From NCBI RefSeq assembly GCF_054482595.1, contig NZ_CM137008.1: a stretch of 64,000 nt of DNA; one strand, written 5' to 3'. Below, in pieces: positions 62,169 to 62,560 of this stretch. Made by a program: the position numbers and the translations under genes. Position 1 is the stretch's first letter, and each line of letters begins with the position of its first letter. The notes below the pieces were generated by a model. It made no database searches. It was not told where the DNA came from and was given only the letters and a program-made list of their open reading frames with translations.

Positions 62169-62560
62169 AGGGGCTTCATCCGAATTGCGCCATTGTTGCA
62201 ATGGCGGTTTTTATTGTTTTTCACGACAGTAACCGCACCTACACTGTCATGACATTGCTCGCCCCTATGTGTAACAAATAACCACACTGTGAATGTTGTC
62301 TTTAATCAATTGTAAGTGCATGTAAAATACCACTTTAGAGTTAGTCAGTATCTTCCTCTTTTTCAACAGCATGCATAACTGCATGTTCCTCAAAGAATTA
62401 ATCAACTTTTGTTGCTGACCTTCAAAAATTACCCTGCCGTTTATTTGCACAATTCTACTTTTGCGTGATCTGTCGCCCAAATACTAAACAAAACTGCCAA
62501 TACCCCTACATTTAACGCTTATGCCACATATTATTAACATTCTACAAGGAGAACAAAAGC
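62169..62560. promoter_or_regulatory. divergent nrfA / acs regulatory region
   Basis: AT-rich intergenic region between divergent nrfA and acs; FNR-like half-site ttgat at about 62306-62310 on the nrfA strand; established FNR/NarL/NarP (nrf) and CRP (acs) control; sites not individually mapped. Confidence 0.55.

Follow-up and report, generated by a model that had tools for sequence, protein, structure and literature searches.

The nrfA-acs control region of an Escherichia coli genome, read as two promoter modules and a variable linker

Identity of the spacer and of its flanking genes

The DNA lying between the divergent start codons of nrfA and acs, at positions 62169-62560 of the window (the whole 64-kb stretch that was analysed), corresponds with near certainty to the nrfA-acs control region of Escherichia coli, organized as two modules and a variable linker. 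This feature is known in detail, and the copy described here follows the K-12 paradigm, bar one probably neutral base. Its sequence is identical at 391 of 392 bases to positions 4287372-4287763 of K-12 MG1655 (NC_000913.3), the sole mismatch being at 62541. As the two spacers diverge by a single base, the mapping data obtained in K-12 carry over to the window; the comparison with the mapped K-12 nrfA and acs promoters, which an earlier sequence-only reading of this DNA had proposed, places the published start sites and site centres exactly. Protein binding and regulatory effects in the window strain itself are those that we infer from the literature.

The spacer length, given by the list of open reading frames and the sequence, is exactly 392 bp, in agreement with the spacer of about 390 bp announced by that reading, and its AT-richness is equally borne out (G+C content of 38.5%, vs 54.1% for the whole window). 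The identities of both flanking genes were established with NCBIfam models and concur with the K-12 annotation. nrfA, encoding the cytochrome c552 nitrite reductase, occupies 60732-62168 on the minus strand, with its ATG at 62168-62166, and its product scores 871.6 bits against the equivalog NF008339; nrfB, nrfC and nrfD follow downstream of it, each with an NCBIfam equivalog match. acs, encoding acetyl-CoA synthetase, starts on the plus strand with the ATG at 62561 and is truncated at the window end (62561-64000); its product scores 811.6 bits against the equivalog NF001208.

Nearly all complete E. coli genomes (5,413 of 5,426) contain the spacer, with at least 99% identity in 4,071 records, and that of strain XH990 is 100% identical to the window. 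A search of 61800-62900 for Rfam families at a permissive threshold returned nothing but a chance similarity to the model of a eukaryotic lncRNA, scoring 18.1 bits for a gathering threshold of 40 (E = 0.23).

The nrf promoter

A single FNR site, centred at -41.5, has been described at the nrf promoter, pnrf (Godfrey et al., 2017; PMC5434802). In the window, the FNR site TTGATTAAAGACAA lies on the minus strand at 62296-62309, matches the consensus at 8 of 10 positions and is centred at 62302.5; setting this centre at -41.5 gives a pnrf start site at 62261 on the minus strand, with a leader of 93 nt and the nrfA ATG at +94. Independent confirmation of this start comes from the p+102A change, which turns an AGG arginine codon into AGA (PMC5434802) and fits only if nrfA codon 3 (AGG) is at +100 to +102. 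The FNR centre is thus located 41.5 bp from an independently fixed +1, which is the geometry of a class II FNR promoter. The FNR-like half-site pointed out by the sequence-only reading belongs to this same site, as part of the 14-mer ttgattaaagacaa read on the nrfA strand at 62296-62309; the TTGAT itself occupies 62305-62309, shifted by one base from the approximate position first given, 62306-62310. Across Escherichia and Citrobacter, 12 of the 14 columns of the site are invariant. Transcription from the K-12 promoter needs both FNR and anaerobiosis (PMC5434802, Table 1), and the nrf half of the K-12 spacer is the same as that of the window, base for base.

By sequence comparison, the pnrf -10 hexamer is TACACA (62268-62273, minus strand), a weak hexamer of the K-12 type. 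It is overlapped by Fis I, recognized through a match to the Fis consensus as a 15-bp Fis-like core at 62269-62283, centred at -15. In the literature, Fis I overlaps the pnrf -10, and the change found in enterohaemorrhagic E. coli (EHEC) is located "just outside" Fis I (PMC5434802); base 62268 directly abuts the Fis-like core, which matches this published placement.

Between the FNR and NarL sites, the near-invariant stretch 62310-62327 is assigned, from literature roles, the repressing IHF I site and an overlapping NsrR target (PMC5434802; PMC12285233). IHF I represses pnrf, and NarL and NarP displace IHF there (PMC5434802). A consensus scan finds an NsrR-like half-site, TACATGCACTT, at 62314-62324. 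Position 62319 is a C in Escherichia and a T in most Citrobacter, which changes the NsrR-like half-site TGCATG beside the FNR site. The NsrR target is reportedly inactivated in Salmonella, possibly through this same base. As to IHF I, we take its position to be -54 of pnrf, for which the source is reportedly the work of Browning in 2002 and 2010.

The NarL/NarP site consists of the 7-2-7 inverted heptamers TACCACT-TT-AGAGTTA at 62328-62343 (14 of 16 positions), centred at -74.5 of pnrf and at -1.5 of acsP1. It is the only NarL-type 7-2-7 match in the spacer and falls at exactly the -74.5 position where NarL and NarP use a common site (PMC5434802). pnrf thus carries a 7-2-7 pair of TACYYMT heptamers upstream of its activator site, and this pair is invariant at all 16 columns in 18 aligned sequences.

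Taken with the published data, these positions suggest how the promoter would work. In anaerobiosis, FNR at -41.5 would bring RNA polymerase to the weak TACACA hexamer, and in rich medium, Fis bound to Fis I, across the -10, would switch pnrf off. IHF at IHF I and NsrR, just upstream of FNR, would curb activation, until phospho-NarL or phospho-NarP at the 7-2-7 site evicts IHF, which would account for nitrite induction. The main text of the FNR ChIP-seq study of Myers (2013) contains no mention of nrfA.

The acs promoters

Olvera et al. (2009; PMC2759082) have printed promoter strings that end at the start sites of the two acs promoters, acsP1 and acsP2. The acsP1 string is found exactly at 62299-62337. 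This weak promoter thus has its -10, TAAAAT, at 62323-62328 on the plus strand and its +1 at 62337, which places the start 224 nt upstream of the acs ATG and 76 bp from the pnrf +1. A weak divergent acsP1, fully repressed by FNR, has been described within -87 to +10 (PMC5434802). FNR, centred at -34.5 of acsP1, and NarL/NarP, centred at -1.5, would cover its -35 region and its start, so that the anaerobic activation of nrf would at the same time silence acsP1. Silencing by such an occlusion is what we infer from the positions, in line with the published repression by FNR.

The acsP2 string is found at 62503-62540, its last base, the start site, being published as C where the window has T at 62541. 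The -10, TATTAT (62529-62534, plus strand), thus spans -12 to -7, and the predicted +1, 20 nt upstream of the ATG, is a T instead of the published C. Direct reading identifies the acs Shine-Dalgarno sequence, AAGGAG, at 62546-62551; it is conserved across genera. Two CRP sites lie upstream. CRP I, at 62461-62482 (core CGTGA-N6-GCCCA, 7 of 10 positions), is centred at 62471.5, or -69.5 of acsP2, and CRP II, at 62408-62429 (core GTTGC-N6-TCAAA, a weak 6 of 10), at 62418.5, or -122.5. Both centres are exactly those of a class III promoter with two CRP dimers when counted from 62541, with weak consensus matches, and their distance, 53 bp, is that of the RegulonDB paper (PMC3531196). CRP I, GCGTGATCTG, shows no variation among 27 sequences from more than 10 genera, and conservation of CRP II is restricted to its right half, CTTCAAA. 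Kinnersley et al. (2009; PMC2763269) located in CRP I the A found at -93 relative to the acs ATG; in the window, this base is 62468, within CGTGA. A second FNR-like 14-mer, TTGCTGACCTTCAA, matches at 8 of 10 positions and coincides exactly with CRP II (62412-62425).

[quoted passage not shown] The dependence of acs expression on CRP and IHF has been measured on exactly this intergenic fragment (PMC3783194): the forward primer corresponds to 62169-62185 and the reverse primer to 62542-62560, but with a mismatch at the polymorphic base 62541. acsP2, the main acs promoter, would be activated by CRP dimers at -69.5 and -122.5, and this activation would be opposed by Fis in exponential phase and by IHF in stationary phase.

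The T at 62541 is rare in the species, as the 60-mer that surrounds it has an exact match in 20 of 5,158 E. coli records (~0.4%), among which XH990, H5, H6, O157:H16 Santai and THO-010. A T is also present at this column in Escherichia sp. MOD1-EC7003, Leclercia, Silvania and some Raoultella and Enterobacter, and the change is therefore probably neutral. That it alters acs initiation in this lineage is less likely than the leader element proposed below. Within acs, codon 2 is AGT here and AGC in K-12, a synonymous difference at 62566.

The attribution of FNR, NarL and NarP to nrf and of CRP, Fis and IHF to acs, made by the sequence-only reading, agrees with published work on these promoters (PMC5434802; PMC3531196; PMC2759082; PMC2763269), except that Fis and IHF act on both sides.

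Conservation and two-module architecture

A degenerate-pattern scan of species-representative genomes gave 48 acs loci. The gene divergent from acs is nrfA in the three Escherichia loci and in all Citrobacter loci with sufficient upstream sequence; 17 Escherichia/Citrobacter loci were usable, for an alignment of 18 sequences. Overall, 60% of the columns of this alignment are invariant. Conservation is concentrated in the block running from FNR to NarL (62291-62343), 91% invariant, a value that only 0.6% of windows of the same length match, and in CRP I, 86% invariant in the same alignment. The linker that joins the nrf module to the acsP2 module (62344-62407) has only 30% of invariant columns; the upstream Fis and IHF sites may be placed in it or near it. 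Citrobacter spacers, 431-436 bp long, carry an insertion of about 35 bp after 62354 (loci L005, L008, L012 and others), indicating that the spacing between the modules is not conserved.

Enterobacter, Leclercia, Raoultella, Kluyvera, Cedecea, Lelliottia, Silvania and Pseudocitrobacter (loci L006-L052) do not have nrfA upstream of acs. They still conserve, almost base for base, the sequence from CRP I through the -10 as well as the Shine-Dalgarno sequence, so that the CRP I/acsP2 core is conserved in more than 10 genera. Homology to the E. coli spacer stops upstream of CRP II in these genera, and another conserved upstream sequence stands in for the nrf half.

From these alignments, the spacer appears to be a composite of two modules. 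The nrf core, at about 62262-62343, would gather FNR, NarL/NarP, IHF, Fis and NsrR and house the weak acsP1. The acsP2 module, at about 62408-62560, would be ancestral and CRP-dependent. The linker between them seems to tolerate indels and IS1. Such an architecture fits the published independent regulation of both sides and agrees with the RegulonDB summary on anti-activation by Fis and IHF at acsP2. It represents a modest descriptive addition, namely a CRP/acsP2 module that many genera possess and to which, in Escherichia and Citrobacter, the variable linker attaches an nrf module. As for the signals integrated here (oxygen, nitrite/nitrate, nitric oxide, nutrient quality and carbon source), they are those of the textbook example, to which nothing new is added.

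In one further E. coli locus, L053 (SWYHX138.33gt, a horse faecal isolate; NZ_CP091836.1), an IS1B copy (1789-2486) that reads towards acs is inserted in the linker at about 62358. In the experimentally evolved clone CV101, higher acs expression resulted from an IS element inserted upstream of this gene (PMC2763269), and the L053 insertion recalls that event.

The observation on which the sequence-only reading was built is thus confirmed and its interpretation is supported, except for the statement that overlapping nucleoprotein complexes couple the two promoters, which is overstated. Sharing concerns pnrf and the minor acsP1, FNR repressing the latter while it activates the former. It is this weak promoter that pnrf overlaps; acsP2 and its CRP sites are 200-280 bp off, in a separately conserved module. 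The founding paper, as cited in PMC5434802, is indeed entitled [quoted passage not shown].

A candidate element in the nrfA leader

The 93-nt leader of nrfA contains two predicted hairpins on the minus strand. Hairpin 1, from +10 to +41 (62221-62252), has 11 base pairs, with 100% of the cells paired in 14 sequences; hairpin 2, from +56 to +74 (62188-62206), was obtained by folding and alignment and has 8 base pairs. When both are considered in the 14 Escherichia/Citrobacter sequences, 99.6% of the cells are paired, with one compensatory pair, in hairpin 1. G.U pairs account for 48 of the 263 hairpin cells on the minus strand, that of the nrfA mRNA; read on the plus strand, they would become C.A mismatches. 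Covariation is modest, its level being reached by 10 of 500 shuffles in a shallow phylogeny.

Further downstream, the GGA motif of the CsrA site is located at +101 to +103 (62159-62161, minus strand), within ACAAGGAUA, in nrfA codons 3-4. CsrA is known to repress nrfA after transcription through the GGA at these codons (PMC5434802), and the leader together with this motif would permit such a repression. One tentative possibility, to which we give a rather low probability, is that the two hairpins and the CsrA GGA motifs form a post-transcriptional element that has so far been undescribed. If true, this element could act on the stability of the mRNA or on the accessibility of the ribosome-binding site, and it would add a control layer to a promoter thought to be understood.

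Chance matches and alternative explanations

Consensus scans alone would have given another picture of the spacer. FNR matches with at most 3 mismatches number 4, vs 2.8 in dinucleotide shuffles (p~0.29), and CRP matches with at most 4 mismatches number 12, vs 10.3 (p~0.32). Consensus-mismatch scans of the spacer for NarL heptamers, IHF and NsrR do not rise above the dinucleotide-shuffle background either, IHF giving no match at all with at most 1 mismatch, and the Fis scan is marginal (p~0.03). A generic sigma-70 scan of the region returns 0 sites and thus misses all three mapped promoters. The sequence-only reading had made FNR and CRP matches above background the touchstone of its proposal. 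Such a scan would wrongly reject a true finding, and this is because the sites are degenerate and activator-dependent. The region therefore serves as a calibration case, in which consensus scans detect neither the three experimentally proven promoters nor their activator sites; the sites surface only through spacing and cross-genus conservation, and the promoters through conserved -10 elements.

The same scans could be taken to mean that the motif matches arise by chance in an AT-rich spacer and are devoid of a specific regulatory role, all the more so as FNR-like matches with at most 2 mismatches occur 41 times in the 64-kb window, or about 0.25 per 392 bp. This explanation, which neither the consensus counts, equal to those of shuffles, nor the failure to find a consensus sigma-70 promoter would contradict, is effectively refuted by three facts: the spacer is one base off that of K-12, in which mapping and mutagenesis have been carried out on these very sites; a pairing of FNR and NarL 7-2-7 sites at a distance of exactly 33 bp turns up in about 0.015% of shuffles (~1.5e-4); and conservation is far higher in the sites than in the linker. 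The regulatory reading being retained, the window strain might have carried the deregulated pnrf that is known in O157:H7, with a better -10, partial independence from FNR and insensitivity to rich medium, and about 28% of E. coli records do vary from the window somewhere in 62238-62298. The stronger, partly FNR-independent pnrf of EHEC results from a single -10 change (Godfrey et al., 2017; PMC5434802). O157:H7 has a T at -7 (62268, nrfA strand), and its hexamer, TACACT in the O157 genome and TATACT as printed in the text of PMC5434802, would in either spelling correspond to a single change that restores this T. The window has an A at -7 (T on the plus strand), the K-12 base, and its entire pnrf core is that of K-12, so that direct sequence comparison rules out an EHEC-type -10 allele.

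Another explanation concerns the conservation of 62265-62321, which could be due, instead of or besides the binding sites, to a coding sequence, the pnrf core then doubling as the gene of an 18-residue peptide. The current K-12 record does annotate there ytcB (b4821), an ORF of 18 codons on the minus strand, MHLQLIKDNIHSVVICYT, whose sequence is the same in the window and which is intact in three other Escherichia sequences. This ORF extends over both the FNR site and the pnrf -10, and its position wholly upstream of the pnrf +1 excludes its presence on the nrfA mRNA; the generic sigma-70 scan found no promoter able to feed it. Its ATG is replaced by ATA in 12 of 15 Citrobacter species sequences, the stop codon being lost as well in L005, L012 and L029, and among the three Citrobacter sequences that keep the ATG, L008 has a premature stop and L019 no stop codon. 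Conservation at the peptide level is moreover limited to the part that overlaps the FNR, IHF and NsrR sites. In the literature search, no experimental basis of the annotation was found: all full-text matches to ytcB concern the Bacillus gene, and the E. coli small-protein ribosome-profiling preprints and supplement found contain neither its coordinates nor its peptide. A coding origin of this conservation is thus doubtful, in our view quite improbable, and a functional YtcB peptide over the FNR site is less likely than the leader element. For the leader, it could also be imagined that the hairpin at 62188-62206 and a T tract act on the plus strand as an intrinsic terminator, shielding the spacer from antisense transcription coming from nrfA. 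Its 8 base pairs, of which 5 are G-C, followed by GTTTTTATTG, are the sole terminator-like match in the region. Shuffles yield as many such matches (mean of 0.9), there is no known promoter upstream of it on the plus strand, and the G.U pairs by which both hairpins keep their pairing are specific to the opposite strand. A plus-strand terminator at 62188-62216 is for the latter reason judged decidedly unlikely, and the match probably reflects hairpin 2 read from the opposite strand.

Comparison with known systems

The closest known system is the K-12 region studied in the Busby, Cole, Browning and Wolfe laboratories. It has the same flanking genes, orientation and length, its mapped start sites and the positions of FNR, NarL/NarP, Fis I, CRP I and CRP II all coincide with those of the window, and it differs by the C at 62541, the acsP2 +1. 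Citrobacter spacers separate the same divergent gene pair, with a near-identical FNR-IHF/NsrR-NarL block and a near-identical CRP I/acsP2 module, but differ by a T at 62319 in most cases, which leaves ytcB without its ATG, by another left half of CRP II and by another -10 region. Salmonella also has an nrfA-acs spacer of this kind (PMC5434802).

The nrf promoter of EHEC O157:H7 shares with the window the general architecture and the binding sites. Its T at -7, which the window lacks, makes it stronger, partly FNR-independent and also less sensitive to Fis. Finally, the E. coli nir promoter belongs to a different locus, with a different sequence and no divergent acs promoter. It is a class II FNR promoter (-41.5) at which repression by the nucleoid proteins IHF and Fis is countered by upstream NarL/NarP, and its logic is thus that of pnrf.
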